The notes beneath the pieces are model-generated. The model saw only the letters and a program-made list of their open reading frames with translations, was not told the DNA's origin and searched no databases. The translations under genes and the position numbers were made by a program. From a virus (Duplodnaviria; Heunggongvirae; Uroviricota; Caudoviricetes), in the IMG/VR virus record IMGVR_UViG_2896607866_000012, positions 1 to 38,459 of that record: a DNA stretch of 38,459 bases; one strand, 5' to 3'. Below are positions 3,249 through 38,459 of the stretch, in pieces; position 1 is the stretch's first letter, and each line of letters opens with the position of its first letter.

Positions 3249-4327
3249 CAGAACGGGTCCTCCTGTACTCTGGCTTTTTTCTTTTTCCGCGCGCCGGGGG
3301 CTTCGGGTTCAGGCAGATAAGCATCAGGCGGGCCGACACGGATTTCCGTCAGGGTGCCGTTCTGGTCCTGAGTAAACGTGACTTCCGAAACAAGCAGTTC
3401 GGTATTGTCGAAACCACAGACCGGATCAAAGACAATCACCCGCTGGTTGGGCTGCCACAGCGTACCGTTACCCTGTCGCCAGCCCTGCACCACATAGGTG
3501 GTTTCATCCGTCCGCGCCGCCCGTTGCCGGGCTTCAAAGTCAGCACGCGCAATACAGCCTGCCCCCGTAGCCTGCCCTGTCTGCCTGATATACATCGGAC
3601 GGTAACGGGCAATAAATGCGTCCTCTGTACGGGCCCGCAGCGCGGTGGTGGTGGCCTCACCGAAATCATCGTCATTTCCGGCACGCTGCCCCGCCACCTG
3701 GTAAACAGAAAATCGCTCCCGGATACTCTTCTCCGTATCGCAGGAAAGGATGTTTTCCCCGAGTACCAGCGCAGTATGTGCCCGCGTTGAGCCAATACCG
3801 CCAATCACCAGCCTGCCGTGCGGGTCGTCGTAAGCCAGTGCCTGCTGCTGACCGAGTATTTTGTTGATTACCTCAATCACCGTTTCACCGTGATCAGGCT
3901 GAACATCAGGAATAACACCCGACGGCGCACCGCTGTTCACCACCTCAATGCCGAAAGGCGCAGCAAGCGCCTGCGCAATCTGTACCAGCGATCGTCCGTT
4001 AAACTGTGTCGGTTCGGCTGCACAGTCAATCAGGTCAGCGGTCAGACTGCGTCCGGCAATACCGGTGCTGACCGAACGGGCATCGTAACGAACGGGCGTC
4101 GCCTCCACCCAGCCGGTGATCACCAGCTCATCACCAATCAGCACCTCCACTTTTGAACCGTTTTTAATGCGCGGCTGAAGCGTGGTAATACCCTCATCTC
4201 CCGGCCACTGGCGGGTGATCTCCACACTGAAATCCCGCGCCAGCCGTTCAATACCGGCACCGATGCGCACCGATGTCCAGCCATTCCACTCCCGGCCATT
4301 TACCCGTAGCGTGACATTGTCGTTCAT
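3248..4327 (-). CDS. baseplate hub / tail protein (Mu gp44-like, late control D family)
   Basis: 359 aa ORF; synteny between DNA circularisation protein and spike. Confidence 0.6.
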   Translation of the reverse strand: MNDNVTLRVNGREWNGWTSVRIGAGIERLARDFSVEITRQWPGDEGITTLQPRIKNGSKVEVLIGDELVITGWVEATPVRYDARSVSTGIAGRSLTADLIDCAAEPTQFNGRSLVQIAQALAAPFGIEVVNSGAPSGVIPDVQPDHGETVIEVINKILGQQQALAYDDPHGRLVIGGIGSTRAHTALVLGENILSCDTEKSIRERFSVYQVAGQRAGNDDDFGEATTTALRARTEDAFIARYRPMYIRQTGQATGAGCIARADFEARQRAARTDETTYVVQGWRQGNGTLWQPNQRVIVFDPVCGFDNTELLVSEVTFTQDQNGTLTEIRVGPPDAYLPEPEAPGARKKKKARVQEDPF

Positions 4328-11422: not shown

Positions 11423-11742
11423 TGCGGAAAGTACCTGTACGGGCCGACAAGCCAGCCAAAACTCTGCGGCATGTCGAGTTTCTCCACTTCCGTAACCGAC
11501 GAGCGGTTTTCGTAAAAATGGCTGATAAGCATCAGCATCCCTAGACGAATATCATCCGGCAGGTGCAGCCCGTCCGGATCGCTGTCCGGAATGGTTTCAT
11601 CCGGTGCATAGAGCTTCCGGTTCAGATACGTTTCCGTCCGCTTTTGTGCCGCACATGCCAGCAGTTGCAGATGGTGGTCATCAGTATCGAAATCCTCATC
11701 CAGCCGGAGTTGGGCTTTAATCTCTTCCATTGTCAGAAGCAT
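11419..11742 (-). CDS. head-tail connector protein (gp6-like)
   Basis: 107 aa acidic ORF after capsid gene. Confidence 0.5.
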   Translation of the reverse strand: MLLTMEEIKAQLRLDEDFDTDDHHLQLLACAAQKRTETYLNRKLYAPDETIPDSDPDGLHLPDDIRLGMLMLISHFYENRSSVTEVEKLDMPQSFGWLVGPYRYFPQ

Positions 11743-11744
11743 AC

Positions 11745-11945
11745 TCAGCCCTCTTTACTGGTCGTGGCTTTTTTCTCTTTTGCCGCTTTACTGCTTTTTG
11801 CACTGATTCCGCGCTCTGCTAACCCGGCCTGAAGTGCAATCTCCTGCACCCGGGCAGGAAGCGCCCCGTCGTCATACTCACCGGCCTGAATGACCTCAAC
11901 ACGCATACCGTCCGGTGACCATTTCAGATCTTGTTTCAGGATCAT
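11745..11945 (-). CDS. hypothetical small protein
   Basis: 66 aa ORF between capsid and connector; Lys-rich C-terminus. Confidence 0.3.
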   Translation of the reverse strand: MILKQDLKWSPDGMRVEVIQAGEYDDGALPARVQEIALQAGLAERGISAKSSKAAKEKKATTSKEG

Positions 11946-11995
11946 GATTCTTTCACCTGTCAGAACAGGGGGCGCGGTTCCGCGCCCCTGAGTGA

Positions 11996-13201
11996 TTACG
12001 CCGCTGCAATCTTCAGCAGTTTGATGGCCTGCGAATCGACCAGCATGCCGCCGGTGCGCTTGGTGGTATAAAAACCGACAAACGGTTTATTGGTGTACGG
12101 ATCACGCAGAATGCGGGTACCGATACGGTCAACGATGGTGTAACCCCGCTTGAAGTTACCAAATGCAATAGCTTTCGCATCAGCGGCGATATCCGGCATC
12201 TGTTCGTTTTCAGCGATACCGTAACCCGCCAGAGAGGACGGTTGCCCCAGCTCCAGCCCCGGACGCCACAGATAGTTACCCTCGGTGTCTTTCAGCAGAC
12301 GGATGGCAAACAGGCTGTTGTTGTTCATCATGAACTTCGCGCCAGTGCGGTGTGCCTTACGCAGCGTGTAAATCAGTTTGATAATGGCGTCTGCGGTCAC
12401 CGTCGTCGCTTCACCGGATACAATATGCTGAAGTTTACCGAACGCACGAACCTTATCGGTTTCATCGGTGGATTCATACGCCAGGAACCCTTTTGGCTTC
12501 TTGGTGCCATCACCGGTGGTAAAGGCAATTTCTTCCTGTTCGGCAAATTCGGTCGCCAGCTCGCTGTTGATCCAGGCCTCCAGGTTGAAGAAGATATCAT
12601 CCAGCATTTTCTGAGTGGCCTGCGGGTTACCGTAGATTTCCCCCATGAAAGGTTCAATCAGTCCCAGTTTTGAGGTGGCAGTCTGGGAGCGCGCGTCAGT
12701 CTCGCCAACCCATCCGGAAGCCGTGCCGCCCAGATTCACCAGTTTTTTGTAGTCGGAACCGCCAACGGTGATCACCGTGGCTTCCTGGCGCATCACCACT
12801 TCATCTTTCAGCAGGGTGAGAATGTTGCGATCCAGTGCTTCCGGCACGGCATAGCCGCCGTCTTCATCGGTGCCCACCTGTAATGCCTTGCGCTCCAGAT
12901 CGCGCAGACCATCTTCACGGCCTTTACGCAGGAAGCCCACAAACGCTTCTTTATGCTCGGTGGCCAGTTTATTTTGCGCACCACCTGCCGGACGTTTCAG
13001 CTCAAGCAGCTCTTTTTCAAGATCGCTTTTGAGGTTTTCCAGCTCGCTGAGTTTCCCGTTCAGGGTTTCCACCTGCCCGGCAAGTTTGCCTTTTTCCTGC
13101 TCAATCGCATCCACGCGCTTGTCGTTCTTTGCTTTGAAGTCGTCAAACTTCTGCTGCAGCTCCTGCGCGACCTGTTCCACATCTTTAATATCAACCGCCA
13201 T
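11996..13201 (-). CDS. major capsid protein (HK97 fold)
   Basis: 401 aa ORF with N-terminal coiled-coil delta-like region; follows prohead protease and portal. Confidence 0.85.
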   Translation of the reverse strand: MAVDIKDVEQVAQELQQKFDDFKAKNDKRVDAIEQEKGKLAGQVETLNGKLSELENLKSDLEKELLELKRPAGGAQNKLATEHKEAFVGFLRKGREDGLRDLERKALQVGTDEDGGYAVPEALDRNILTLLKDEVVMRQEATVITVGGSDYKKLVNLGGTASGWVGETDARSQTATSKLGLIEPFMGEIYGNPQATQKMLDDIFFNLEAWINSELATEFAEQEEIAFTTGDGTKKPKGFLAYESTDETDKVRAFGKLQHIVSGEATTVTADAIIKLIYTLRKAHRTGAKFMMNNNSLFAIRLLKDTEGNYLWRPGLELGQPSSLAGYGIAENEQMPDIAADAKAIAFGNFKRGYTIVDRIGTRILRDPYTNKPFVGFYTTKRTGGMLVDSQAIKLLKIAAA

Positions 13202-13215
13202 CGTATTTCTCCTGA

Positions 13216-13902
13216 TTAGAAGTTCAGATTTTTCAGTGCATTCAGTACAGAGCCCACATCCTCAGCGTCGCGCAGGGACAGTGCGCCATAGCCCCCGGCC
13301 ATGAATGCTTTGGCCTGGGTACGGGAGAGTCCGACATCACGCAGGACTCTTTCGATTTTTTTCTGTTCGGGGATTTCACCGCGGGCCAGCGCGTTCTTGA
13401 CGTCGCTGATCCGCGCCTCGTCGTTAGACGGGAACGTCACCAGACTGACTTCCCAGAGGTCGATTTCTTTCAGCAGAAAGGCTTCTTTACTCCGGTCGTA
13501 TTCCCAGTCTTTCAGGACGTACCCAATAGAAAGGCCGGTTAACGAACCGGCCTTCATGTGTGCATGTGCGCGTTTTGCGAGGGGATCATCATCAATGAGC
13601 AACCGTCCCCTGACGTAAAGCCCGACATCGTCTTCCTTCATTTCGGTATAAACACCGATGGGTTCATCCATGCGGTGCTGCCAGAGCAGCGCAGGTAACG
13701 CTTTTCTGTCACTCCACGCCCGCAGGGAAGCAGCAAATGCCCCGGACATCACCACATCATCGTGGCTGTCCTTTACACCAAAGACGGAGCCATACCCTTC
13801 AAACTTACCGGAGTCACTGACAGATTTCAGACTCAGCGGTACATCAAGACGTTGTTTCGTCTGTATTGGCGTTATCCTTCTGCTTACCGGCTTTACTGCC
13901 AT
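13216..13902 (-). CDS. prohead serine protease (HK97 family)
   Basis: 228 aa ORF between portal and capsid; 5' end overlaps portal 3' end so true start may be internal. Confidence 0.75.
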   Translation of the reverse strand: MAVKPVSRRITPIQTKQRLDVPLSLKSVSDSGKFEGYGSVFGVKDSHDDVVMSGAFAASLRAWSDRKALPALLWQHRMDEPIGVYTEMKEDDVGLYVRGRLLIDDDPLAKRAHAHMKAGSLTGLSIGYVLKDWEYDRSKEAFLLKEIDLWEVSLVTFPSNDEARISDVKNALARGEIPEQKKIERVLRDVGLSRTQAKAFMAGGYGALSLRDAEDVGSVLNALKNLNF

Positions 13903-15085
13903 CGGAGGGTTTCGTGGTCATGTTCATCGGTGTGAGATAGACATCACCACCGGGACGCGGATTCATATCTTCCAGGTCGCGGCAGTCATTGGGAGAGTAA
14001 ATTCCCCAGTTGATCCCGGTGGCGTAGGCTTCAAAACGGGACTTCATATCCCCGCGCAGTAACGCCCCGGCGTTAAATTTGGCGTAATAAATGCCCAGCT
14101 TACTTTTTCGTACCAGTCCGGTGTTGATCCGCTGCTCAATGCGGGTCAGATACGGCACCAGTGAATAGTTGATAAATCCCAGCCCCAGCTCTTCGATATT
14201 GTTGAAGGTGGCGCGATCGGTGTTCTGCACCATATGCAATGGCACCCGGAACAGACGACAGATTTCTTCAAGCTGAAACTTGCGGGTTTCCAGGAACTGG
14301 CTGTCCTCGGCGTTCAATGCCATCGACTTCCAGTCCAGCCCCATCTCAAGGATCATCGGGCGGTGAGCATTGCCAAGCCCGGTGTGACGCTCCTCAAAAT
14401 CTTTCTTCAGGCGCTCATAAGCCTGATCCGACAGCGTCTGTTCTGTACGCAACACACCGGACGTCACCGCGCCATTGCTGAACAGTCTGGCACCGTGTTC
14501 TTCAGTCGCTGCTGCCAGCGATATTGCCTCGCGGGCATAGGCGACGGGATTCAGTCCCACCAGACCGTCCAGCGTCAGCGTGCGCACATGCCAGATATCC
14601 TCCTGGGTCAGCACATCCGTTGAGCCGTCCGGGAATGTGACCTGATAGACCGGCTCCCAGCTACTGTTAAGCTTCGGTACCACACAGCCGGGATCGACGG
14701 ACAGCAGTTCAGCCACTTCACCAAATGCTTTCACTTTGTAGGCGTAAAAGTTGCCCCGCAGGCACAGACAGGTGACCACCAGCTCCCAGAACTCCTGCGG
14801 CGTCATATAGCCATTAGGATGCGAGGAGATCAGCTTATGCAGACGTTCGCCAGTGGCTCTCTGCTTCAGACCGCCATTCAGGTGATACAGGTTGCAGGGC
14901 AACATCCCGACCGACTCCGCCAGCACCCTAACACAGGAAAAAACCGCCGTCAGTCGCATGGCCCGCTGACTGCTGATCTGCTTTCCGGTATAGGTGTCGT
15001 AGGACAACCCGATAGCATCCGCCAGCTCTGCTGGCGTGGTCACCGGTGCGTCACTTTTTCGTTGAAATAATCCCGAAAAGAACAC
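13844..15085 (-). CDS. portal protein (HK97 family)
   Basis: 413 aa ORF downstream of terminase large subunit. Confidence 0.85.
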
Positions 15086-15266
15086 TATTTACCTCCGCCG
15101 ACAGACTGCTTGTACGGTCGAGATATCGCGCCACCAGCCACGACCAGAACAGGCACAACGCCCCGGCAACAACAAAACCCACCGGGGGATAAATCAGCCA
15201 GGCACCATACGCCAGCAAAAGCGCCCCCAGCACGCCTACCAGAGGCGCGAGAATCAGCATGATCAT
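15051..15266 (-). CDS. small hydrophobic protein
   Basis: 71 aa ORF with two predicted TM segments between terL and portal; overlaps portal start. Confidence 0.3.
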
Positions 15267-15277
15267 AATTACCTCAG

Positions 15278-17011
15278 TTAAAGCGAGCGGATCCCGTAGG
15301 ACTCAATGTGGTCAGACAGCGTGTCTTCTTTCTCGTACAGCATGGCTCTGCCAACCGCCATAATCAGCGCAACTGCACCATCGATTTTGTTTTCCGCCTG
15401 CTCTTTGACGGGCTTCACCACATCATCGTTACCCGGAATGGTTTTTCCGACCACGTTGCCGATACACCAGGTCATGATGGGATTGCCATCATGATGAAAG
15501 CGCCCCGATTCAATTGCCGCTTCCAGCTCTTTCATCGGGTCGGACATGTTGGTGTAGTTCTGAATGATGGTGACGGTGTTCAGGTCTTCATCAGCAAGGT
15601 CATGTGACAGCCCGGTCGCCCCGAAGGGGTCGATGGGTGACTCGCTGACCGGGCTGATTTTGTTCGCCGCTTTGGCCTCTTCGAGGATGTAGCGATAATC
15701 CACCTCTGCACCATCGGTAACGGTCAGGACGCCCATTTCCACCCATTTCTGAAAGCGTTCGGCTGTCCGGCGATCTTCATTTTTCTCGACGCTATACACC
15801 GCGTCATACGGTACCCAGAAACGCGGGGCCACACTGTAGTAATGCGTTTTACCGTCAATCTCGCGGGTATAAAGTCGCGCCATGCTGTTCATATCCAGCT
15901 TACGCTCCAGGTCAAAGGCCAGAATGCACGGCTGCCCCTCGAACTGCTCAAGGGTCAGTGATTTATCCTCGCAGCTCTGCCAGCTCACCAGGTTGAAATA
16001 CGCCGAACGCGCCGACACCTAGATATTGAGGTGTTTTGTTTTAAAGACGTTTGCCAGACGGGCGTTATTTTTCGCACGCTGCTGCTGACTTAACAAAAAT
16101 TCGCGATAAACCGACACGCCAATATTTGGATTGGCTTTTTCCAGCACCTGCGGGTCGGTCCAGTCGTCACCTTCATCAACGGTATAGATGATCCCGAACA
16201 GTTCATCGTTAGGCACCGAGCCGTTGAGCATCTCGATGACTTCCCGCCGCTTGTCGTAGCACGGCCCCTCAATGTTGTACCCGGCGGTGGTGATAGCCCA
16301 CATCAGTGGCTGACGTCGCGCCCCCATCCCGGTAAGCATCGTGGTGTAAAGCGCATCGGTGGCGTGCTCGTGATATTCATCCACCACCGCACAGTGGGGT
16401 GATGAACCATCACCGGGGTTACCGATCAGCGGTTCAAACCGCGCGCCATCCTCCGGACGATTCATGTTTGAGGCGTTAACCTCAATCCCGAACGCTTCCG
16501 TCAGCATGGGGGGGCGTTTACACATCAGTCGTGCCGGACGAAAGACTTCCCATGCCTGCTTCTCCGTCGTGGCACCGGAATACACTTCCGCGCCGAACTC
16601 GTTATCACAGGCAAAACAATACAGGGCGACACCGGCAGAGATTGCCGATTTGCCGTTCTTACGGGGGATTTCGGTATACACCTCACGGAAGCGGCGCAGC
16701 CGGGAGCCTTTATTGACCCAGCCAAACGCGCAGCAGATCACAAAGAGCTGCCACGGCTCCAGCGTGATGGGCATCCGTTTGAATGCCCACTCACCCTTGG
16801 TGTGTGGCAACAGCTGAATAAATTTCGCGGCCCGTTCAGCCAGGTCCTTGTCGAAGCGGTAACGAAACGACTTACTTTTTTCCGCCATCAGGTCATCAAG
16901 ATGGCGCTGGCAGGCCTGAATCACAAACTGGCAGGCCACAATCTTTCCGCGCACGACATCACGGGCATACTGATTGGCAGCATTTACGTTGGGGTAAGAT
17001 TTCCGGCTCAT
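15278..17011 (-). pseudogene. terminase large subunit interrupted by in-frame TAG (ATPase part 16022..17011, nuclease part 15278..16018)
   Basis: Two adjacent same-frame ORFs separated only by plus cta at 16019..16021 (minus TAG); together 578 codons. Confidence 0.75.
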
Positions 17012-17502
17012 GATTCGATGATTTTCAGAAACGGGTTAGTGGCTTTCTTCTGCCCCGCCAGGCCAATCAGACGCTGGCGGCTGCTGGGGTCGAGTCCGAG
17101 CATTGCCCCCGTACTGCTCATCTCGGACTCCTGTTCTTTTTTGGCGGTCAGCTCCGGATTTTTGACCATACCGCCCATTGCACCGGTGATGGTGTTGCCC
17201 TGTCTGGCAATATTTTTCACGGCACGTCGCCAGAACTCGTAGGCCACGCACCACCGCTCAAGCACCGCGAGGTCAGTCACGCACAGCAGGCCCTGACCGC
17301 AGAGTTCTTTAGTTGTCAGTTGCCACATGATCGTAGCGAGAGGGAGATCTTCTTCAGCGAACCACTCCGGTGGCTCAACACCTTTGATGGGCGTAAAAAC
17401 AGGTTCATCTTTATTCAGGGCTCGCTTGCCGGGGTTTCCGGCCAGCGCCTTGCGCGCCGTTGGCTTGGGGCGACGCCCGGAACGCCCCGCCGTTCCAGCC
17501 AT
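17008..17502 (-). CDS. terminase small subunit (P27 family-like)
   Basis: ORF upstream of terL; ATG at 17502 preceded by AGGAG; track start 17511 is GTG. Confidence 0.7.
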
Positions 17503-17628
17503 ATGCGGCACTCCTGGTTAAATTTCATTTTTCGCGGGTATAAAAAAACGATGGGGCGGGCAGTCCGGAAGGCGCGCGGTCGCAGAGATTTGACCTCCCC
17601 CTCCCCAGTCTGATGATGACATTAATTA

Positions 17629-18018
17629 TCACTTGAGCCGCTCACGCGCGGTCTTCGCTGCGTGACACGACCAGCACAGGCTTTCAAGGTTGCTGTCTTC
17701 ATCAGTACCGCCGTGGGCCTTCGCCTTGATGTGGTCCACGCAGGACGCCTGCTTCACTATCGCCTGCCGTAGATGGTTCTGACACAGCCCTTTGTCGCGC
17801 TTAAGTATCCGCTCCCGGATGACTTCCCACTTTGTTCCGTATCCTCGCTGCTGCCGTGATTGACCAGGCTTGTAGGACTTCCAGCCTTCACCTTTGTGAT
17901 TTTCACAGTAGCCAGATGGGTCTGTTGTGGTGTTGCGACAGCCGCGAACACGGCAAGCCTTTGGTGTGCGCGGTGGCATATTCACTCCCCAAAAAACGTA
18001 TAGCATTATCGCAGACAC
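17629..18018 (-). CDS. HNH endonuclease
   Basis: 129 aa ORF with Cys/His-rich motifs (CxxC, HxxxH pattern); canonical position upstream of terS in HK97-like cos phages. Confidence 0.8.
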   Translation of the reverse strand: MSAIMLYVFWGVNMPPRTPKACRVRGCRNTTTDPSGYCENHKGEGWKSYKPGQSRQQRGYGTKWEVIRERILKRDKGLCQNHLRQAIVKQASCVDHIKAKAHGGTDEDSNLESLCWSCHAAKTARERLK

Positions 18019-18042
18019 TTAATGAATGCCTGCTGAATGCCA

Positions 18043-18246
18043 CTAATCGTCGAGTTGCAATACACCGTGCTCAAGTGACTCTGAGTAAGCGATCAGCCCT
18101 GTGTATTCAGGGATAATCTCGCCATCATCCGCTTCGAATTCCGGGATTGTACCAGTGGTGATGGTGTATTGGGGCTGACCATCTTCTTTCGCGAATGCTG
18201 CTAGGTCTTCAATCTGCTTAGCTGTAAGAACTACTGTCATGCTCAT
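18043..18246 (-). CDS. hypothetical acidic protein
   Basis: 67 aa ORF rich in Asp/Glu; no family recognised. Confidence 0.35.
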   Translation of the reverse strand: MSMTVVLTAKQIEDLAAFAKEDGQPQYTITTGTIPEFEADDGEIIPEYTGLIAYSESLEHGVLQLDD

Positions 18247-18304
18247 ACCTCAGTTGTTAAAAAGCCCCGCTATTGCGAGGCTATGATTGACTAAAGTGAT
18301 GCTG

Positions 18305-18580
18305 TCAGGTGTGGGTCCAAATGAATTTAACAATCCCAATAATGCTAGCCAGAACGCCAAAACCAAAAATAAATTGACCACATACCCCTATGATTCCCGA
18401 TGCAATGGCACCGGCATTTGTCTGAGCATTTTCGTTTATGCTCGCCCCCACTAGATACATAATCAAACCAACTATGAGAGATGCGATAATCCAATGTTCC
18501 ACTGCTAATACAATTACAATGCTCAAAATATCTGCTAAACCATCACTATGACCACTCACTGCATATCCTTGCTTTGACAT
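18305..18580 (-). CDS. hypothetical membrane protein
   Basis: 91 aa ORF with about three predicted TM helices in a visibly AT-rich stretch; TATAAT-like element about 25 nt upstream of ATG; no obvious SD. Confidence 0.4.
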   Translation of the reverse strand: MSKQGYAVSGHSDGLADILSIVIVLAVEHWIIASLIVGLIMYLVGASINENAQTNAGAIASGIIGVCGQFIFGFGVLASIIGIVKFIWTHT

Positions 18581-18646
18581 TTGAAAAATTCATCACTGGA
18601 TTATAATTGTTTACACCCTTCATAGTCGTTCGAATATGATAAAAAA

Positions 18647-19183
18647 TCAATTGTGGGGGATAGCGTTATTTGACTCTCTCAACGAGTCGTAAATACGTTC
18701 ACACGTCATCCCGGCGGTGTAGCGTTCGTCAGCGATTCCAGCATAACGTTTAGCTTCTGCTGCAATATCTCCGAGCATGTCGGCGAACATTCCGGCGTCG
18801 GCGTCGGTTGTTTTGCTTCGGACGGCAGCGGCAAGATCAGCGGTGTGCTTTGCGGCGTCCAGGCGTGCGGCAAGCTTTGTTGCTTCGGTACGCAACTGGC
18901 TAACAGTGGCAGACAGGCCAGCAGCAGTGGCAGCAGATTTAGCGGCTTGTGCTTGTGCATCTTTTACAGCCTCATCACGGGCAATTATGCGCCCTTGTTC
19001 AATCCAGCGTGCGGCAGTCTGCGCGTTCGCTTCCTGTGAAGATTCCATGCTATTGTGGTCAGCCCACTTCTTTTGCCAGCCCCGCTCACTCCAGATGTTC
19101 CCGGCAAAAAATGCACCAGCCAACATCAGCAAAACAATGATTGTTTTCCACCGCGCCTGAACAAAAGCAAAGACCGCTGTCAT
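18647..19183 (-). CDS. Rz-like i-spanin
   Basis: 178 aa ORF with N-terminal TM and Ala/Gln-rich coiled coil, downstream of endolysin, with embedded Rz1-like ORF. Confidence 0.65.
18706..18960 (-). CDS. Rz1-like o-spanin lipoprotein
   Basis: ORF embedded in +1 frame inside Rz; lipobox LLASC and Pro-rich C-terminus; true start probably downstream of annotated first Met. Confidence 0.55.
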
Positions 19184-19797
19184 ACCAGCAACGCCGCCCG
19201 CGCTTTGTTATAACGACTATTTCTGTCAGCCAGTCCATTCTGGCCACCGTTGATGATCTGCGTTACACGGACAACATCACCTGAATACATCAGACAACCA
19301 CGTAATGTGAAATACCATGCAGCAGAACGGGCTGCATGTTTCTCCTGTGTCAGCAACTCTGGTGTGCTGATCAGATCCAACTTCAGCGCCGCACCGCATT
19401 TGGCGTAGTTCTCGCGGCCGGTGATTTGAAGCAGGCCACGACCGCGATATTTCCAGCCGTCACCCTGGCTGTTATTCCCCATGCGGTCACCATAAACCAG
19501 ATTGGCTATTTGCGGCTGGTGGGCTACCTGCTTACCATCGACACGCCCCAGCATTTCACACTGATAAGGCGTCAGGCGTTTACTAAAGGTTTTCTTCAGC
19601 CCGTCTACCGAGTAGTTGAAGCTTTCCACCAGCGAGGTAAAACCAGCAGATTCATGCCCAACTTGTGCAATGAACATGGCCTGATCGTTAACTGCTGTGA
19701 TTCCAAACTCTTTCATTGCAGCATCAATGTGCGGAAACCAGCGCGCAGCCAGCCCGGCGCTAATACCAGCCGCCTTTTGAAATAATTGTTGGTTCAT
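19180..19797 (-). CDS. endolysin, glycoside hydrolase family 19 type
   Basis: 205 aa ORF with GH19-like motifs; lysis cassette position. Confidence 0.8.
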
Positions 19798-20078
19798 TAG
19801 TGCCTCAGATGATCAACCAGACGTGCAACGTTGCCTCTGACGGCCACCAGCACGGAAAGAAAAATAGTGTTCGCCACGATAATGGGCCATGAGGAATGGG
19901 GATAAATCCCACAGAGATAGGCCAACGGAACAGCACTGTATGTAACAGTAATCAGCCAGGCTAAACGTGAAACCCAAGGACGATGCCGCGAATCACCACG
20001 ACGATAAAACATCAGAGTAATAACAACACAAGCACATAACAGCGCATTTATAGTTGCTGTCGGGTCATTTAGCTCCAC
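19797..20078 (-). CDS. holin-like / lysis accessory membrane protein
   Basis: 93 aa ORF with predicted TM helices immediately upstream of endolysin. Confidence 0.45.
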   Translation of the reverse strand: MELNDPTATINALLCACVVITLMFYRRGDSRHRPWVSRLAWLITVTYSAVPLAYLCGIYPHSSWPIIVANTIFLSVLVAVRGNVARLVDHLRH

Positions 20079-20451
20079 CTGAACCTCCCCGGCGCGTTAT
20101 GAGCGCCACCAGCGAGCCGATATCCTGATTATTCAGGAACGTCAGGATTTTAACGGCTAAAGCAGAGACGATTACGGCACCAATAGCATCCAGCGGTTTA
20201 TCACTGTATCCGGTCAAGTGCGCCAGCTTGGAGCCAACCAACCCAGAGCAAAGGATCCCGGCAATATATGACACGATAAAATATGCCAGTCGGCGCGATG
20301 CACTCAGATCTGCTGCTGTTGCTATGTAGAATACAGCCCCTGCAAATGCGTCAAATACAACGCCGTAATCAGTTCCGGTCAGCAGTCCATAAACACTGGC
20401 ACCCGTCAGGGCACCACCAGCCAGCCCAGTACCGGAAATCGGATCGGACAT
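20065..20451 (-). CDS. putative holin
   Basis: 128 aa Gly/Ala-rich membrane ORF at start of lysis cassette. Confidence 0.5.
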   Translation of the reverse strand: MSDPISGTGLAGGALTGASVYGLLTGTDYGVVFDAFAGAVFYIATAADLSASRRLAYFIVSYIAGILCSGLVGSKLAHLTGYSDKPLDAIGAVIVSALAVKILTFLNNQDIGSLVALITRRGGSGGAK

Positions 20452-20530
20452 TTAGCCCCCTCTTAATTGCTGTTGGTCCTCTCAGATATGAGGGGAAGGG
20501 ATCTTAATGACAGTCTATTTATTATTTCAG

Positions 20531-20788
20531 TCAAACACTACCCTGTTGATGATTTCTCAGAAGCGAACTTGACTCCCAGGGGAAACTCAACTTTCCGTTA
20601 AAACCACCAGCAGACACTCGTTCAATTTCCACAGAAATATCACTGAGCCGTTCTTCAAGCTCTGCTTTTTCTTTTACCAGACGGTTATAGCGGCTTAGAT
20701 GAAGCTTTTGCTGCTCCAGCCAGTCTTCAAGCTGTTCAACAGTCATACCAGGGTTAAAAAAATATGGCTGCTGCTTTTCGCCCTGCAT
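20531..20788 (-). CDS. hypothetical coiled-coil protein (85 aa from internal ATG)
   Basis: ATG at 20788 preceded by GGAGG; the track's longer N-terminus (to 20857) overlaps a terminator hairpin and is rejected. Confidence 0.3.
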   Translation of the reverse strand: MQGEKQQPYFFNPGMTVEQLEDWLEQQKLHLSRYNRLVKEKAELEERLSDISVEIERVSAGGFNGKLSFPWESSSLLRNHQQGSV

Positions 20789-20800
20789 TATTGACCTCCA

Positions 20801-20828
20801 GAAAAGCAAAAACCCCGCCGAAGCGAGG
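20801..20828 (-). terminator. rho-independent terminator (tR'-like) downstream of Q
   Basis: Minus strand CCUCGC-UUCG-GCGGGG (one G-U pair) followed by UUUUUGCUUUUC. Confidence 0.45.
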
Positions 20829-20881
20829 TTTGTTATGATTTCGTTAACGGCAGACATACAAAGCCCATAGTTAGGAGAATC

Positions 20882-29302: not shown

Positions 29303-29421
29303 TTTTTTCAGGTAACTCGTCGGCATCGCAGAAACAACAACGCTCGATCTGAAGTGGCACACTGAATTTGGCCACCTGAACAGAGGTGATATGCTCACCT
29401 CAGAACAACACAGGTGCTCCA

Positions 29422-30590
<1,169 letters not shown>

Positions 30591-30717
30591 CCACTTCAAT
30601 CATGTTGAAAGCCGATTCGTAGAACTGTTTTTGCTGAGTGTCGCTGAGACAGGAAAAGAGCGACGTTACGATGATTTTATTAATTGCATTATCAAGTTCT
30701 TTTTCATCAAAAGTCAT

Positions 30718-31154: not shown

Positions 31155-31256
31155 ATGGCTAGCGAACGCAGTACTGATGTGCAGGCATTTATCGGGGAGC
31201 TGGACGGCGGCGTATTTGAAACCAAAATCGGCGCAGTTCTCGGTAATGACTCCAAC

Positions 31257-31760
31257 TTACTGATAGTGTTTTATGTTCAGATAATGCCCGATGACCTTGT
31301 CATGCAGCTCCACCGATTTTGAGAACGACAGTGACTTCCGTCCCAGCCTTGCCAGATGTTGTCTCAGATTCAGATTATGTCGCTCAATGCGCTGAGTGTA
31401 ACGCTTGCTGATAACGTGCAGCTTTCCCTTCAGGCGTGATTCATACAGCGGCCAGCCATCCGTCATCCATACCACGACCTCAAAGGCCGACAGCAGGCTC
31501 AGAAGACGCTCCAGTGTGGCCAGAGTGCGTTCACCGAAGACGTGCGCCACAACCGTCCTCCGTATCCTGTCATACGCGTAAAACAGCCAGCGCTGACGTG
31601 ATTTAGCACCGACGTAGCCCCAATGTTCGTCCATTTCAGCGCAGACAATCACATCACTGCCCGGTTGTATGCGCGAGGTTACCGACTGCGGCCTGAGTTT
31701 TTTAAGTGACGTAAAACCGTGTTGAGGCCAACGCCCATAATGCGTGCACTGGCGCGACAT
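31257..31760 (-). CDS. insB: IS1 InsB frame (InsAB' transposase by frameshift)
   Basis: 167 aa ORF ending ...[10 protein letters not shown], 15 nt from IS end. Confidence 0.85.
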
Positions 31761-31954
31761 CCGACGCCATTCATGGCCATATCAATGATTTTCTGGTGCG
31801 TACCGGGCTGAGAGGCGGTGTAAGTGAACTGTAGTTGCCATGTTTTACGGCAATGAGAGCAGAGATAGCGCTGATGTCCGGCAGTGCTTTTGCCGTTACG
31901 CACCACGCCTTCAGTAGCGGAGCAGGAAGGACATCTGATGGAAATGGAAGCCAC
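31679..31954 (-). CDS. insA: IS1 InsA
   Basis: 91 aa [23 protein letters not shown]...; starts 56 nt from IS end. Confidence 0.9.
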
Positions 31955-32358
31955 GCAAGCACCTTAAAATCACCATCATACACTAAATCAGTAAGTTGGC
32001 AGCATTACCCAGTTCTCAGTGAAGTCGCTTCCGGTGTGATGAACACGAAAACCAAAGGTAAGGTCTCACTCAACCTGGAAATCGAACCATTTGATGAGAA
32101 CCGTGTGAAAATCAAACACAAACTCTCATATGTTCGCCCGACTAACCGTGGGAAAATTTCCGAAGAAGACACCACCGAAACGCCGATGTATGTCAATCGC
32201 GGTGGTCGCCTGACTATTCTGCAGGAAGACCAGGGACAATTACTGACTCTTGCCGGTGAGCCTGACGGAAAACTCCGCGCAGCAGGTCATTAATATCGTT
32301 CTTAATTAACTGATTATTTATCTCATCACTGAATATCTTAATATAGTGAGGACTTATT

Positions 32359-33006
32359 ATGTCTCAGTACTTAGACGCAACCGCAATTAATCAAATCCAT
32401 GCCCTTATTTCTGCTCAGGGTGTTAATGAAATTATCAGTAAGATTGGTGCCGATGCTGTGGCATTGCCTGAGAATTTCCGCATTCATGATCTGGAAAAAT
32501 TTAATTTAAATCGCTTCCGTTTCCGTGGTGCGCTTTCCACTGCCAGCATCGATGACTTTACCCGTTATTCTAAAGATCTTGCAGATGAAGGCACCCGCTG
32601 CTTTATCGATGCTGATAATATGCGTGCCGTCAGTGTGCTTAACCTGGGTACTATTGATGAACCAGGTCACGCAGATAACACCGCCACTCTCAAACTGAAA
32701 AAGACAGCACCGTTCTCTGCCCTGTTGTCTGTTAACGGCGAGCGTAACTCCCAGAAATCACTGGCAGAATGGATTGAAGACTGGGCCGACTACCTTGTGG
32801 GCTTTGATGCTAATGGTGACGCCATTCAGGCAACAAAAGCGGCTGCGGCTATCCGTAAAATCACGATTGAAGCAAACCAGACCGCTGATTTTGAAGATAA
32901 TGACTTCAGCGGCAAACGCTCCCTGATGGAATCTGTCGAAGCGAAGACCAAAGACATTATGCCAGTGGCATTTGAATTTAAATGCGTTCCGTTTGAAGGT
33001 CTGTAA
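32359..33006 (+). pseudogene. yfdQ: yfdQ-like (DUF2303) gene, 3' end displaced by IS66-family insertion
   Basis: 215 codons then a stop supplied by the IS terminus (gTAAg); the remaining 59 codons resume in frame at 35765 after the 8 bp repeat, reconstructing 274 aa. Confidence 0.6.
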
Positions 33007-33084
33007 GCGCCCCATCAGCGACGTCTTGTGAAAATTGTCCTGTCTGGCAACAATCGCGCCCATCTATATTGATGGACACGAACG

Positions 33085-33759
33085 ATGAATTCCCAGACAA
33101 CAAAAGATATTCCCTGCTTCCGTTCTTATTTGCCTGATGCCCTGCGTTTAAGATTTGAAGATAAACTGACCATCCGGGCCATCGCTCAGCGTCTGGGTCT
33201 CAGTCATTCCACAATACATACGCTTTTTCAGCGATTTCTTGCATCCGGTATCGCATGGCCATTGCCCGATTCAGTTTCATTCGCTCAACTTGACGCCATC
33301 CTTTATGCCAACAGAAAGAAGGAATTAACAGAGCCTCAAATCAGAGAAGGCTCATGGCGAAAAGAACGGCGAACCAGCTATAGCCGTGAATTTAAGGTCC
33401 GTCTGGCTAAGCAGGCGTTACAGCCTGGGGCTGTTGTTGCCCGGATCGCCAGAGAACACGATATCAATAATAACCTGCTGTTTAAATGGAAAAGCCAGTA
33501 CGAGGACGGCTTACTGAGCGATGATGACATACAGGAATGCATGCCTGTCCCGGTGGCTCTGACTGATACGCCGGAGCCGACCAGACCAGTTACAAATCCC
33601 TTCTGGCGTAACAAGCATGATGAGCGCCCTGAGGGGGCTCCCGGAAACGTCCCACGGTGCGAGCTGCATCTTAAATCAGGTGTGGTAAAACTGTTTGACC
33701 CTCTCACTCCGGAACTGTTACGGGCGCTAATCCGCGAAATGAAAGGGGGTATCCGATGA
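33085..33759 (+). CDS. IS66-family TnpA-like accessory protein
   Basis: C-terminal half shows the IS66 Orf1 pattern (YSREFKVRLAKQALQPGAVVARIAREHDINNNLLFKWKSQYEDG); N-terminal extension, so true start uncertain. Confidence 0.55.
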   Translation: MNSQTTKDIPCFRSYLPDALRLRFEDKLTIRAIAQRLGLSHSTIHTLFQRFLASGIAWPLPDSVSFAQLDAILYANRKKELTEPQIREGSWRKERRTSYSREFKVRLAKQALQPGAVVARIAREHDINNNLLFKWKSQYEDGLLSDDDIQECMPVPVALTDTPEPTRPVTNPFWRNKHDERPEGAPGNVPRCELHLKSGVVKLFDPLTPELLRALIREMKGGIR

Positions 33760-34103
33760 TAACGCTGCCGACCGGTACCAAAATCTGGATCATCGCTGGC
33801 ATCACAGATATGCGTTGTGGCTTCAATGGCCTGGCTTCGAAGGTGCAGAACACGCTGAAAGATGACCCGTTCTCCGGGCATATCTTCGTCTTCCGGGGCC
33901 GCAGTGGCAAAATGGTGAAAATACTGTGGGCCGATCGTGACGGGTTATGCCTGTTCGCCAAACGCCTGGAACGGGGCCGCTTCGTCTGGCCGGTGACCCG
34001 GGAAGGGAAAGTGCACCTGACGCCAGCTCAGTTATCCATGCTACTGGAGGGGATCGCGTGGCAACATCCCAAACGGACAGAACGGCCTGGCATCCGGATA
34101 TAA
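33756..34103 (+). CDS. IS66-family TnpB (Orf2)
   Basis: 115 aa; start overlaps tnpA stop (ATGA). Confidence 0.8.
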   Translation: MITLPTGTKIWIIAGITDMRCGFNGLASKVQNTLKDDPFSGHIFVFRGRSGKMVKILWADRDGLCLFAKRLERGRFVWPVTREGKVHLTPAQLSMLLEGIAWQHPKRTERPGIRI

Positions 34104-34122
34104 CCCGTGATAAAACAAGGGA

Positions 34123-35723
34123 ATGAACAATGAACTCCCCGATGATATTGAGCTGCTTAAAGCCATGTTGCGTAAGCAACAGAGTCGGCTTCGACAGTAT
34201 GCCTGTCAGGTCGCGGGCTATGAGCAGGAAATTGAACGGCTGAAAGCGCAACTCGACAGGTTGCGTCGTATGTTGTTCGGCCAGAGTTCAGAGAAAAAGC
34301 GTCATAAGCTTGAAAATCAGATCCGACAGGCAGAAAAACGACTGTCGGAACTGGAAAACCGGCTGAACACAGCCAGAAATCTTCTGGAAGATGCATCGTC
34401 AGTCACAGATTCACCTGACACCAGTCCCCCGTCAGAAAACCCGATCGCCAGTAAGCCTGAATCCCCGGGACGAAAATCTTCACGAAAACCGCTGCCGGCA
34501 GAACTTCCCCGGGAGACACATCGCCTTCTGCCTGCTGAAACCAGTTGCCCGGCCTGTGGAGGTGTTCTGAAAGAAATGGGGGAAACAATCTCAGAGCAAC
34601 TGGATATCATTAATACCGCCTTTAAAGTTATCGAAACCATACGTCCCAAACTGGCCTGTAGCCGGTGTGATGTCATCGTTCAGGCACCACTTCCCCTAAA
34701 CCGATCGAACGCGGTTATGCCAGTGCAGGGTTACTTGCACGGATCCTGGTCAGCAAATATATGGAACATATCCCTTTATATCGCCAGTCAGAAATATACG
34801 CGCGACAGGGCGTGGAGCTGAGCCGTAATACCATGGTGCGCTGGGTATCAGAAATGGCAGACAAACTCCGTCCTCTGTATATAGCGCTGAATGACTATGT
34901 TCTGGAGGCAGGAAAGGTGCACGCAGATGACACTCCGGTGAAAGTACTGGCCCCGGGGAACGGAAAGACGAAAACGGGTCGTCTGTGGGTATACGTCAGG
35001 GATGATCGTAATGCGGGTTCATCCCTGCCGGCAGCCGTCTGGTTCGCGTATTCGGCAGATCGCAAAGGAGAACATCCGCAGCTCCACCTGGCAAAGTATC
35101 AGGGCGTACTGCAGGCTGATGCCTATGCAGGTTATAACGTACTGTACGAAACGGGCCGGGTGAAGGAAGCCGGGTGCCTGGCCCACGCCCGCCGAAAAAT
35201 CCATGACGAGGATGTGCGCCGTCCGACAGAAATGACTCAGGAAGCGCTCAGACGGATAGCAGAGTTATACGACATAGAAGCGGAGATACGTGGCAGTCCG
35301 GCAGAGGAACGGCTTGCAGTCAGAAAAGCCAGAAGCGTCCAGTTGATGCAGTCGTTGTACGACTGGATACAGTTGCAGAGGAAAACGCTGTCGAAACATG
35401 CGGAGATGGCGAAGGCGTTCGACTATATCCTGAATCACTGGAATGCGCTGAACGAGTTCTGTCGTGACGGCTGGGTGGAAATAGACAACAACATCGGTGA
35501 AAACGCGTTACGATCGGTGGCGGTTGGAAGAAAAAATTATCTCTTTTTCGGCTCAGACAAGGGAGGAGAAAGTGCGGCGATCATCTACAGTCTGCTGGTC
35601 ACCTGCAAACAGAACGAAGTGGAGCCGGAGGACTGGTTGCGCGAAGTGATCGAGAAGCTCAATGACTGGCCGTCGAACCAAGTGCATGAACTGCTGCCCT
35701 GGAACTTCTCGTCTGTAAAATAA
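34123..35723 (+). pseudogene. IS66-family transposase TnpC, frameshifted
   Basis: N-terminal zinc-finger part (34123..34821) and catalytic part (34761..35723) are in different frames; switch lies at C4 run 34693..34696. Confidence 0.7.
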
Positions 35724-35755
35724 TCCTTACGCTACGTACTTCTCGGGGCGCTTAC

Positions 35756-35944
35756 GAAGGTCTGAAAGAACGTCCGTTTAAATTACGCCTCAGCATTATC
35801 ACTGGCGATCGTCCTGTACTGGTTCTGCGCATTATTCAGCTGGAAGCGGTGCAGGAAGATATGGCTAACGAATTTCGTGATCTGCTTGTTGAGAAATTCA
35901 AAGACAGCAAAGTAGAAACCTTTATTGGTACTTTCACCGCCTGA
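35756..35944 (+). pseudogene. 3' remnant of yfdQ-like gene
   Basis: In-frame continuation of 32359..33002 across the IS; stop TGA 35942..35944. Confidence 0.55.
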
Positions 35945-35956
35945 TTTCATTACTGC

Positions 35957-35978
35957 AAATGCCCCTGCGGGGGCATTT
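35957..35978 (+). terminator. stem-loop downstream of yfdQ-like gene (possible terminator)
   Basis: AAATGCCCC-TGCG-GGGGCATTT, followed by only a weak U tract. Confidence 0.3.
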
Positions 35979-36071
35979 ATGGAAACGTAATTAACTCAAT
36001 AATCACCGGATGGTGAGGGCTTCCTTTTACCCAAACTCAGCGCAGTGCAGCGCATATACGTGGAGAACAAA

Positions 36072-36267
36072 ATGTCATTTATTAAAACTTTTTCCGGGAA
36101 GCATTTTTATTATGACAAGATAAATAAAGACGACATCGTGATTAACGATATCGCGGTTTCCCTTTCAAATATCTGTCGCTTTGCCGGTCATCTTTCTCAC
36201 TTCTACAGTGTCGCCCAACATGCGGTGCTTTGCAGCCAGCTGGTGCCGCAGGAATTTGCTTTTGAAG
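36072..36267 (+). pseudogene. yfdR: yfdR-like HD-domain gene, 5' fragment truncated by IS600-like element
   Basis: GGAGAA SD then ATG 36072; MSFIKTFSGKHFYYDKINKDDIV...QEFAFE then runs into the IS end at 36268; no 3' portion in window. Confidence 0.55.
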
Positions 36268-36310
36268 TGAGGTGTACTGGCAATAGCGGACACTACCATT
36301 TGTTCTTTTT

Positions 36311-37129
36311 TTAAGCAGCCATCTGATGATATTTTTCCCTGAAGGCTGCCGGGGAGATATTCCCCAGACGAGAGTGACGACGCTGACGATTGTAGAAAAT
36401 CTCAATGTATTCCCGTATTACTGAGATGGCTTCATCCCGGTTATTAAAACGATAGTGGCTCAGGCTCTCATTTTTCAGCGTTCCCCAGAAGCTTTCCATC
36501 GGAGCGTTGTCGTAACAGTTACCTTTACGCGACATTGATGTTTTCAGACCAAACTGCTCCTGTATGACCCGGTAATCGTATGCGCAGTACTGTGAACCTC
36601 GATCAGAGTGGTGGATTAGCCCGGCAGGTGGGCGCTGGCTCCTGAGCGCCATAAACAGGGCTTTACCTGTCAGCTCTTTTGTCATGCGCTCTCCCATGGC
36701 GTAGCCGACAATTTCGCACGTATAAACATCTTTGATGCCAGCGAGGTACAACCATCCCTCCTGTGTGGCAACATACGTCAGGTCCGCCACCCAGACTTGA
36801 TTTGGTGCTGTAGGAGCGAACGTCTGGTTCAGCAGATTTGGCGCAACTGGCAGATTGTGGTTCGGGTTCGTAGTCGCTCTGAACTTGCGTTTCTGCTTAC
36901 AGCGTAGCCTTAGCTCCTTACGAAGACGTGCCAGTCGGTCACGACCAACGATGATGCCATTCTCTGCCAGCTCCGTCTGGAGCCGCCGGGTTCCATATGT
37001 TTCGCGAGTGCGGATATGTGCCACCTTAATCTCCAGTTTTAGCCGCTCATCACTTTGTTTTCTGTCTGAGGGTTCATGCTGTACCCAGTTGTAATAACCG
37101 CTCCTGGATACACCAAATACCTGACACAT
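36311..37129 (-). CDS. IS600-like OrfB (DDE catalytic domain)
   Basis: 272 aa in -1 frame relative to OrfA; DDE motifs. Confidence 0.8.
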   Translation of the reverse strand: MCQVFGVSRSGYYNWVQHEPSDRKQSDERLKLEIKVAHIRTRETYGTRRLQTELAENGIIVGRDRLARLRKELRLRCKQKRKFRATTNPNHNLPVAPNLLNQTFAPTAPNQVWVADLTYVATQEGWLYLAGIKDVYTCEIVGYAMGERMTKELTGKALFMALRSQRPPAGLIHHSDRGSQYCAYDYRVIQEQFGLKTSMSRKGNCYDNAPMESFWGTLKNESLSHYRFNNRDEAISVIREYIEIFYNRQRRHSRLGNISPAAFREKYHQMAA

Positions 37130-37164
37130 CGCTTCAATGGGAAATTGTTGTCGCCATTGTTCGA

Positions 37165-37467
37165 TTAACGCGTATTTTTCAGCGACTCCTGTGCAAAATA
37201 CGCTGTTGCTTTTTTTAATATATCTCGCTCAAGGCGAGCTTCATTTAACGCCTTACGCAGTTGCAGAATTTCAGATTCCAGTTCAGCCACCGTGCGGGAA
37301 CCAGGAGTACCGAGCCCTTTTCTGGCGGCGGTAACCCATTGTCCTAAAGTGCCTTCAGGAAGGGATAATCGGGAAGCGCCTTCACTGATCGAAAGTTGAT
37401 TTTCAAGAACCGTTCTGACAGCTTCGGCTTTGAACTCTTTAGAGTAACGTTGGGTTTTTCTGCTCAT
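37165..37467 (-). CDS. IS600-like OrfA
   Basis: 100 aa [26 protein letters not shown]...; contains TTA_AAA_AAA slippery run (plus 37210..37216). Confidence 0.8.
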
Positions 37468-37531
37468 TATTAGCTCCTTCTGATGCCATTCTATTTCAGG
37501 AAGGAGTGTCCGTTAAACTCAGGCTACCTCA

Positions 37532-38459
37532 CAAAAGCCGGATCGGATTCTGGCTTCAACATTTCGCAGGAATGCAACTAAGAGACATTACTGAATCAAA
37601 AATTTATTCAGCAATGCAGAAAATGACGAACCGGCGTCATGAGGAAAACTGGAAACTCAGGGCAGAAGCATGCAGAAAAAAAGGGAAACCTGTTCCAGAA
37701 TACACGCCAAAACCAGCGTCGGTTGTAACGAAGGCTACGCATCTTTCATTTATAAAGGCCCTACTAAGAGCCGCAGAGCGTGAATGGAAAATGCTGGATA
37801 AGGCACCAATTATTAAAGTGCCTCAACCAAAGAATAAACGGATCCGCTGGCTGGAGCCCCATGAAGCACAAAGGCTGATTGATGAATGTCCGGAGCCATT
37901 AAAGTCTGTTGTTGAATTTGCACTGGCAACAGGCTTAAGACGCTCGAACATCATCAACCTTGAATGGCAACAAATAGATATGCAGCGCCGGGTGGCATGG
38001 ATAAACCCGGAAGAGAGTAAATCAAACCGCGCAATCGGCGTTGCGCTGAATGATACTGCATGTCGCGTTTTGAAAAAACAAATCGGGAATCATCACCGTT
38101 GGGTATTTGTGTACAAGGAAAGCTGTACCAAACCAGACGGAACGAAAGCGCCAACAGTAAGGAAGATGCGGTATGACGCAAACACAGCCTGGAAAGCGGC
38201 GCTGAGACGGGCTGGTATTGATGATTTCAGATTTCACGACTTGAGACACACCTGGGCAAGTTGGCTGGTTCAAGCCGGAGTCCCGTTGTCAGTGTTACAG
38301 GAAATGGGAGGCTGGGAGTATATCGAAATGGTTCGTCGATATGCTCACCTTGCACCTAATCACCTTACCGAACACGCACGGCAAATAGACTCGATCCTGA
38401 ACCCATCGGTCCCAAATTTGTCCCAGTCAAAAAATAAGGAAGGTACTAATGATGTGTAA
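37532..38459 (+). pseudogene. phage tyrosine integrase, 5'-truncated at IS600-like boundary
   Basis: Catalytic-domain signature R...HDLRHT...Y present; arm-binding N-terminus absent; the track ORF start (GTG 37506) lies inside the IS; stop TAA at 38457..38459. Confidence 0.75.

Follow-up and report, generated by a model that had tools for sequence, protein, structure and literature searches.

An IS600 element at the junction of truncated yfdR and integrase genes in an SfV-like prophage of Shigella flexneri

The serotype-converting phages of S. flexneri integrate at thrW beside proA and carry int and gtr at opposite ends (PMC3306764), and a decayed state is commonly reported for the prophages of this species (PMC6424224). 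When overexpressed, the prophage genes yfdQRST inhibit DnaA-dependent replication initiation in E. coli (PMC4776307). Deletions next to an IS element of the IS3 family have been followed in the long-term E. coli experiment, where 14 of 83 IS movements were IS150 movements with deletions, which ranged from 14 bp to 48.9 kb. None of these 14 cases showed a target duplication, a plain insertion came first in all of them, and the deletion was often enlarged later (PMC11708052).

In this study, we analysed a stretch of 38,459 nucleotides, referred to as the window, which is an SfV-like prophage at thrW, reversed relative to the SfV record. Phages SfV and SfIV and intact SfV-like prophages at thrW in E. 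coli, such as that of ACN002, share the order yfdP-yfdQ-yfdR-yfdS-yfdT-xis-int-thrW. In the window, an IS600 stands between the beginning of yfdR and the greater part of int. The sequence of the window is found in S. flexneri strain 71-2783, serotype 3a (CP024470.1), with 100% identity over the 2,704-bp region that contains both junctions, and CP024470.1 also shares the frameshifted IS66 and IS1 gene calls of the window.

The IS600 element and its target site

The element and the features within it are the following:

36268..37531, minus strand: complete IS600 (IS3 family), 1,264 bp
37165..37467, minus strand: IS600 orfA, 100 aa, with HTH_Tnp_1 (Pfam PF01527, E 1.5e-20) and NCBIfam transpos_IS3
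36311..37129, minus strand: IS600 orfB, DDE/rve, with Pfam rve, rve_2, rve_3 and HTH_21 and NCBIfam transpos_IS3 (E 8e-100)
37488..37516, minus strand: promoter-like site in IRL, a consensus match only, which points into the IS toward orfA and away from the integrase remnant

The element has the ends TGAGGT...ACCTCA; its left end (36268, IRR end) reads TGAGGTGTACTGG... and its right end (37531, IRL end) reads ...GGCTACCTCA. The terminal inverted repeats are imperfect, and the two ends agree at 20 of 30 positions. Eight IS600 copies from STEC/Stx phages and E. coli genomes align with the element from end to end over 1,264 bp, at 99.68% identity and with the same termini, and the copies in CP100042.1 and UGYQ01 are 100% identical to it. 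Near-identical copies carry the RefSeq label 'IS3-like element IS600 family transposase, programmed frameshift'. The coordinates of orfB are counted from its first ATG, and the open frame extends upstream as far as the slippery run; on NCBIfam transpos_IS3 it scores 334.6 bits (cut-off 160). An A7 run at 37210-37216, read from the sequence, is the expected site of a programmed -1 frameshift from orfA to orfB. Judged by length, termini, orfA/orfB layout and near-identity to the reference copies, the stretch 36268..37531 is an IS600 of the IS3 family, and what an earlier note on this DNA had called an IS600-like element is the full-length element with exact termini.

The DNA around the element reads ...TTTTGAAG on the left and CAAAAGCC... 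on the right. AAG on one side is thus faced by CAA on the other, and re-examination of the termini gave no 3-bp repeat, which agrees with the earlier claim that this copy has no target duplication. Moving the termini by 1-3 bp to restore a duplication was also considered and ruled out, because they are set by the eight full-length alignments. As a control for the 3-bp rule, the eight reference copies were inspected: five have a perfect duplication (GGG, GAT, CCG, AAC and GTT) and three have none. The rule applies to primary IS600 insertions, and exceptions to it are common. The duplication is a property of the insertion event and not of the element, and its absence at this locus marks a secondary deletion.

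Three further IS elements lie in the window:

29350-30598: IS911, duplication ATC
31242-32009: IS1, duplication CAGTTCTC
33003-35755: IS66-family element, duplication GAAGGTCT

The earlier note had set the element apart from 'the other three IS copies'. This contrast is correct in so far as each of the three has a duplication, but they are different elements and not copies of IS600; in agreement with this, the repeat search returned no long repeats within the window.

The truncated genes and the missing segment

Two gene remnants flank the IS600, and one of them is part of a hybrid reading frame:

36072..36267, plus strand: yfdR', the first 196 nt (65 codons and 1 nt) of the prophage 5'-deoxynucleotidase/DnaA-binding gene yfdR
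37532..38459, plus strand: int', the last 928 nt of an SfV-type tyrosine integrase gene
37506..38459, plus strand: hybrid ORF of 317 aa with a GTG inside IRL, eight IS-encoded codons, one junction-spanning codon and then int'

As proposed earlier, yfdR is cut after codon 65, and the exact break, one nucleotide further on, falls just ahead of the HD motif. The reading frame of yfdR' continues for 15 codons inside IS600, which results in an 80-aa ORF (36072..36314). Up to reference position 3512, the yfdR' flank is 99.6% identical to yfdR of E. coli ACN002 and 96.5% identical to SfV orf30. The right flank picks up within int at reference position 4974 (window 37532), and int' is 99.5% identical to int of ACN002 and 98.8% identical to int of SfV. 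In SfV, SfIV and more than 20 E. coli prophages including that of ACN002, the stretch covered by the same two flanks measures 2,901 bp, compared with 1,440 bp of non-IS DNA in the window. Measured against intact SfV-like prophages, 1,461 bp are therefore missing between yfdR and int. The boundary of the element is ambiguous by a single base, because the IS ends in A and reference position 4973 is also A; the deletion is 1,460 bp long if this A is counted as the reference base.

According to the reference annotation, the lost DNA comprises the last 341 nt of yfdR, orf29 (yfdS), orf28 (yfdT), xis and the 5' end of int. With the PGAP start, int has lost 191 nt, which removes codons 1-63 together with the first base of codon 64; with the start annotated in SfV, the loss is 236 nt. 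What the gap contained in the ancestor is deduced from relatives that are 98-99.6% identical. When the 1,461-bp reference segment and the YfdR C-terminus, YfdS, YfdT, Xis and the Int N-terminus were used as queries, no match was found anywhere in the window, and the same segment and proteins had no match within about 10 kb past either window end in the source genomes. The earlier statements that the window contains neither xis nor the 3' end of yfdR, and that the integrase resumes mid-gene without its N-terminal domain, were thus borne out.

Both flanks have the same order and orientation as in the SfV, SfIV and ACN002 prophages, and the event was therefore a deletion and not an inversion. The earlier note had left room for either; a deletion of 1,461 bp between colinear flanks is what was found, and the suggested inversion drops out, as no flank is flipped. 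A related possibility is that an inversion or translocation placed the excision module elsewhere in the genome, beside a reciprocal IS600 copy. The absent duplication is the one feature that such an event would explain, since inversions between IS copies give the same result. We consider it extremely improbable, because both flanks keep the SfV order and orientation, int' still adjoins thrW and proA, and neither the window nor the approximately 10 kb past each end contains the lost DNA. Because nothing is inverted, a reciprocal IS600 copy need not exist. Longer contigs were likewise inspected for an intact xis-int module next to the window, and they contain thrW, proA and proB directly after int' instead; the tRNA-Thr gene thrW starts 15 bp past the int' stop codon. 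One intact IS without a duplication between colinear flanks is what an IS-linked deletion typically leaves behind, and, as far as the sequence can tell, the IS600 marks the scar of such an event.

The integrase remnant consists of the last two bases of codon 64 and codons 65-372 (PGAP numbering), followed by the stop codon. It retains a core-binding-like region and the whole catalytic domain, while the N-terminal approximately 64 residues are gone. The catalytic domain is complete (Pfam PF00589, profile positions 1-171 of 172, E 2e-46), and its HxxR and Tyr regions with the motifs HDLRH and RRYAH align with the HP1 integrase. Xer-type profiles match only from residue ~124 of full-length Int on. 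Because Xer-type proteins have no arm-binding domain, the lost residues appear to belong to an extra N-terminal domain, which we infer to be the putative arm-binding domain. In lambda Int, the N-terminal domain binds the arm sites that are required for both integrative and excisive recombination. Compared to the ACN002 gene, int' differs at 5 of 928 positions, three of them synonymous and two non-synonymous (A129V and S327Y); five differences are too few to say anything on selection.

The GTG at 37506 and the AAGGAG motif noted earlier both exist, but the hexamer (37501-37506) shares one base with the GTG, which leaves a spacing of zero. In draft genomes, the gene is called from the next in-frame ATG at 37572, with a product of 295 aa. 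When both strands of 35900-38459 were scanned, the minus-strand site in IRL was the sole sigma-70-like match, and no promoter-like site was found near int' on the plus strand of this region. Three terminator-like hairpins are present inside IS600 on the plus strand, and read-through from the early-left operon would need to traverse IS911, IS1 and the IS66-family element as well. Thus, int' appears to have no credible promoter or ribosome-binding site. Because the Shine-Dalgarno-like hexamer abuts the GTG and the only nearby promoter-like site faces the opposite way, a functional hybrid IS-integrase product would be unlikely, which had also been the view of the earlier note. Two recorded products, a 317-aa 'phage integrase' and an 80-aa 'uncharacterised protein', are artefacts of the IS junctions, and both are best treated as pseudogene fragments.

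Occurrence of the junctions and origin of the deletion

Both junctions are also present in the NCTC assemblies UGYT01 and UGYQ01, where the 2,704-bp region is found at 100% and 99.96% identity, respectively (strain data for these S. flexneri genomes are given in PMC5754485 and PMC9455713). In exact look-ups, the junction-spanning ORFs occurred in S. flexneri only, and the 80-aa product is on record in only three complete genomes. CP100042.1, the fourth complete genome, agrees exactly at the right junction and has the IS911 and IS1 insertions but no IS66 element. Its left junction reads ...GGAATT/TGAGGTG compared with ...GGAATTTGCTTTTGAAG/TGAGGTG in the window, which corresponds to 11 bp less of yfdR. 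The right junction, with int and CAA, is thus the same in each of the four complete genomes in which it occurs. The 295-aa int' product is encoded on at least 17 draft contigs; two of these begin 2 nt past the right junction, and 15 are reported as similar. Draft contigs break at this point because short-read assemblies stop at the repeat.

The announcement of the 71-2783 genome flagged it as a draft with an unresolved collapsed repeat (PMC5754485), and mis-joining at an IS-sized repeat could in principle create a false junction. Such an artefact is next to inconceivable for this locus. Two NCTC assemblies that were made independently reproduce the 2,704-bp region with no more than 1 nt of difference, CP100042.1 has the right junction as well, and it is at this junction that the draft contigs break.

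A plain IS600 insertion with an intact duplication would be recognizable from one diagnostic junction at each site, which is GGCTACCTCA+AAGCGTTAATGC on the right side for an insertion in yfdR and GGACGATGACAA+TGAGGTGTACTGG on the left side for an insertion in int. No such intermediate was found at either site in the protein look-ups, in 5,426 complete E. coli genomes or in the pattern scans. In the E. coli genomes, no place covered at least 80% of either junction query, and the gapped junction patterns had no matches in viral, genome and metagenome contig collections. Exact look-ups of the junction-spanning and neighbouring proteins returned only contigs of the deletion type or contigs broken at the IS.

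The reading that we prefer, with a probability of roughly 0.6, is that IS600 originally inserted at CAA in int and that the deletion then eroded the DNA to its left. A normal insertion would have come first, probably in int at this triplet, because the four complete genomes with this junction do not differ there. One or more adjacent deletions, anchored at the IS and extending from its IRR end, would have followed. They would have kept IS600 itself, removed the left copy of the duplication and moved the deletion front across the 5' end of int, xis, yfdT and yfdS into yfdR. The front would then lie 11 bp farther on in CP100042.1, a sister genome, and an advance of the front at the IRR end seems to be the simplest explanation for the difference between the two left junctions. 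Because lost DNA cannot return, the window type would be either ancestral to the CP100042.1 type or independent of it.

The only feature that singles out the original junction is the further loss of 11 bp in CP100042.1. An assembly error in this genome could produce the difference, although noise would hardly place an 11-bp gap precisely at the end of the IS.

The end product alone fits both an adjacent deletion and recombination between two direct IS600 copies. In the latter case, IS600 would have been present in the same orientation in yfdR (at AAG) and in int (at CAA), and RecA-dependent recombination would have removed 1.46 kb together with one IS. This route yields exactly the observed product, with AAG on the left, CAA on the right, a single intact (hybrid) IS and colinear flanks, and it is expected for a copy-out-paste-in element of the IS3 family that lands nearby. 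A second hit is also plausible, as IS600 is found in yfdP, twice in yfdQ and once in yfdR of E. coli strains and only 1 bp away in yfdR of another S. flexneri lineage. However, neither the protein look-ups nor the 5,426 complete E. coli genomes revealed a genome with one of the single insertions or with both copies, and the additional 11 bp lost in CP100042.1 would demand another cycle, with an insertion 11 bp off and renewed recombination. We therefore regard recombination between two copies as a possible but rather doubtful origin of the scar.

Far less probable is an origin without a staggered target cut, in which IS600 would have entered a break that already existed or would have come in by the same event as the deletion. 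The missing duplication is compatible with this idea, and a similar mechanism has been hypothesized for the duplication-less movements of IS5 and IS481 (PMC11708052). Nevertheless, all 14 IS150 cases of the same study consisted of an insertion that was followed by an adjacent deletion, and no special mechanism is needed for the present locus. The IS-excision enhancer (IEE), which promotes the loss of the IS itself (bioRxiv 10.1101/2023.06.07.543989), was considered as well and is not applicable, because IS600 is retained here.

Additional IS600 junctions in yfdR bear on a different question. A Logan contig from ERR832492, which is common to five samples, ends in ...TTTTGAAGC/TGAGGTAGCC, with IS600 in the opposite orientation and 1 bp farther into yfdR. 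This lineage carries the same prophage without IS911, IS1 and IS66. Three IS600/yfdR junctions in related S. flexneri prophages are thus located within 12 bp: GAAG/IRR, GGAATT/IRR and, in the opposite orientation, GAAGC/IRL. One of the three reference copies that lack a duplication, that of E. coli O145:NM FWSEC0002, interrupts yfdR 40 bp upstream, between GTG and GAG, and 283 bp of the gene are gone. Further E. coli strains carry IS600 in yfdP and at two sites in yfdQ, each time with a normal duplication. From this cluster, one might suspect that yfdR around codon 65 is a preferred target for IS600 strand transfer and that the loss of xis and int from SfV-like prophages is recurrent and nearly predictable, but we judge this to be improbable.

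A simple erosion model leaves the ERR832492 junction unexplained, and this junction hints that target choice by the transposase may have made the yfdR junction. Given thousands of IS-rich genomes, the four cases from E. coli do not clearly exceed chance. Targeting of IS-end-like sequences, as in IS911, was examined and rejected, since the best matches to IRL and IRR in the 80 bp around the breakpoints were unremarkable in comparison with shuffled sequences (P = 0.37-0.99).

State of the prophage and comparison with known systems

The deletion at IS600 is accompanied by losses at the opposite end of the prophage. Past window position 1, the homology to SfV ends at SfV position 17463 inside orf22, the tail-fibre-assembly gene, at an IS1. 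Beyond this IS1, host genes similar to ykgEFG follow, without gtr genes and without attR. An IS1-associated event, separate from the deletion at IS600, has removed this end of the prophage together with attR. Of the components needed for excision, the catalytic domain of Int and the thrW end are present, while the N-terminal domain of Int, xis and attR are absent. Because xis and attR are gone, int is beheaded and four IS elements occupy the early region, the prophage is probably locked in the chromosome, decaying and unable to excise, and it is not expected to be induced as a viable phage. The yfdQRST cluster is affected throughout: the IS66-family element splits yfdQ, only the start of yfdR remains, and yfdS and yfdT have gone with the deletion. 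The whole cluster is therefore inactive in strain 71-2783.

In our literature search, no paper on this particular IS600 junction was found, and the feature is an ordinary one of a well-known kind. In comparison with annotated IS600 elements, the copy in the window has the same 1,264 bp, the same TG...CA ends and the same orfA/orfB arrangement with the A7 run, at 99.7-100% identity. It differs in having no 3-bp duplication, since one flank was deleted. A second case of IS600 in yfdR, that of FWSEC0002, shares the orientation of the IS within the gene and the missing duplication. Different from the window, its breaks lie after nt 156 and before nt 440 and its deletion is confined to yfdR, which identifies it as an independent event.

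At the level of the prophage, the gene order that is common to SfV, SfIV and ACN002 is kept in the retained flanks, which are 96.5-99.6% identical to these relatives. In contrast to SfV, the window lacks 1,461 bp of the module and contains four IS insertions, and its head and lysis modules are mosaic. Outside the window, the tail-fibre-assembly gene, gtr and attR, which SfV possesses, were lost through the IS1-linked deletion. The cryptic serotype-converting prophages of S. flexneri occupy the thrW site in the same way, but in the prophage described here the gtr end is gone, too. It therefore represents one further case in which the high IS load of Shigella turns prophages into fixed, decaying segments of the chromosome.

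The closest mechanistic counterpart is IS150 in the long-term E. coli experiment (PMC11708052). Both elements belong to the IS3 family, and in both cases the IS is kept at the edge of the deletion, a duplication is missing and the deletion seems to grow stepwise while it is anchored at the IS end. For IS150, the plain-insertion ancestor was seen in earlier samples, whereas none was found for the IS600 junction. The 11-bp difference between the window and its sister genome might thus illustrate, on a small scale and in nature, how adjacent deletions at IS3-family elements grow step by step, as it is known from laboratory evolution.

IS600 junctions in the yfd genes and possible further IS junctions in int

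Compared with the window, the sister genome CP100042.1 (locus L035, 14837-17529) has an identical IS600 and an identical right junction, but has lost 11 bp more of yfdR (TGCTTTTGAAG, equivalent to window positions 36257-36267), and this additional loss directly adjoins the IRR end of IS600. In a related prophage lineage (locus L028, Logan contig ERR832492_240, 4397-4622), yfdR is broken by IS600 1 bp further than in the window (GAAGC/TGAGGTAGCC), and the element lies in the opposite orientation to the window copy.

IS600 is also found in the yfd genes of E. coli. In the O145:NM strain FWSEC0002 (locus L013, 1818-3333), it is inserted in yfdR in the same orientation as in the window and lacks a target duplication (flanks GTG and GAG), while nucleotides 157-439 of yfdR are deleted at the element. 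This event is independent of the one in the window. A normal 3-bp duplication accompanies IS600 in yfdP of CP101292 and at each of two yfdQ sites, in CP037945 and CP027351.

In other S. flexneri assemblies, some contigs (cluster members P0020, P0023, P0024 and P0025) start within the same int gene, but in another allele of it, at about codons 17, 38 and 60-62. The starts of one group lie just 2-4 codons upstream of the junction in the window. The contig starts in the 5' region of int suggest further repeat (IS) junctions in other lineages.

Other IS elements and continuing IS activity

Three further elements in the window are each flanked by an intact duplication.

Further IS elements of the window, with their target duplications
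29350-30598, IS911, between orf33 and yfdP, duplication ATC
31242-32009, IS1, inside the 5' part of yfdP, duplication CAGTTCTC
33003-35755, IS66-family element, inside yfdQ, duplication GAAGGTCT

The IS66-family insertion is missing from CP100042.1, and the lineage represented by L028 lacks IS911, IS1 and the IS66-family element. Genome comparison suggests that the IS600 event came first, followed by IS911 and IS1 and then by the IS66-family element. Compared with the NCTC genomes, the window copy of the latter lacks 1 nt, and this deletion breaks its transposase into 232 and 320 aa instead of 533 aa. The IS1 copy carries one mismatch, with the InsB call shortened to 97 aa. These differences are either inactivating mutations or sequencing errors; the window's record is flagged as draft. 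In one NCTC strain (UGYT01), the replication-gene region carries a further IS3-family insertion (L020, 1805-2973; L024, 5158-6326). The window lacks this insertion, which shows that IS activity in the prophage is ongoing.

The far end of the prophage and its relation to SfV

Beyond window position 1, SfV homology stops at SfV position 17463, within the tail-fibre assembly gene orf22 (L015, 10652-12500; same in L014 and L016). A 768-bp IS1 comes next, then host ykgEFG-like genes, and neither the gtr cluster nor attR is present in this region of the three loci. The far end of the prophage is truncated. The strain has no gtr cluster there, yet its serotype has been typed as 3a. If this serotype depends on gtrX, the gene must be located elsewhere in the genome.

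Within the window, positions 11536-15358 and 17570-20845 have no nucleotide match to SfV. These two blocks cover head-module genes and the lysis region, so the prophage is not SfV proper but a mosaic relative of it.
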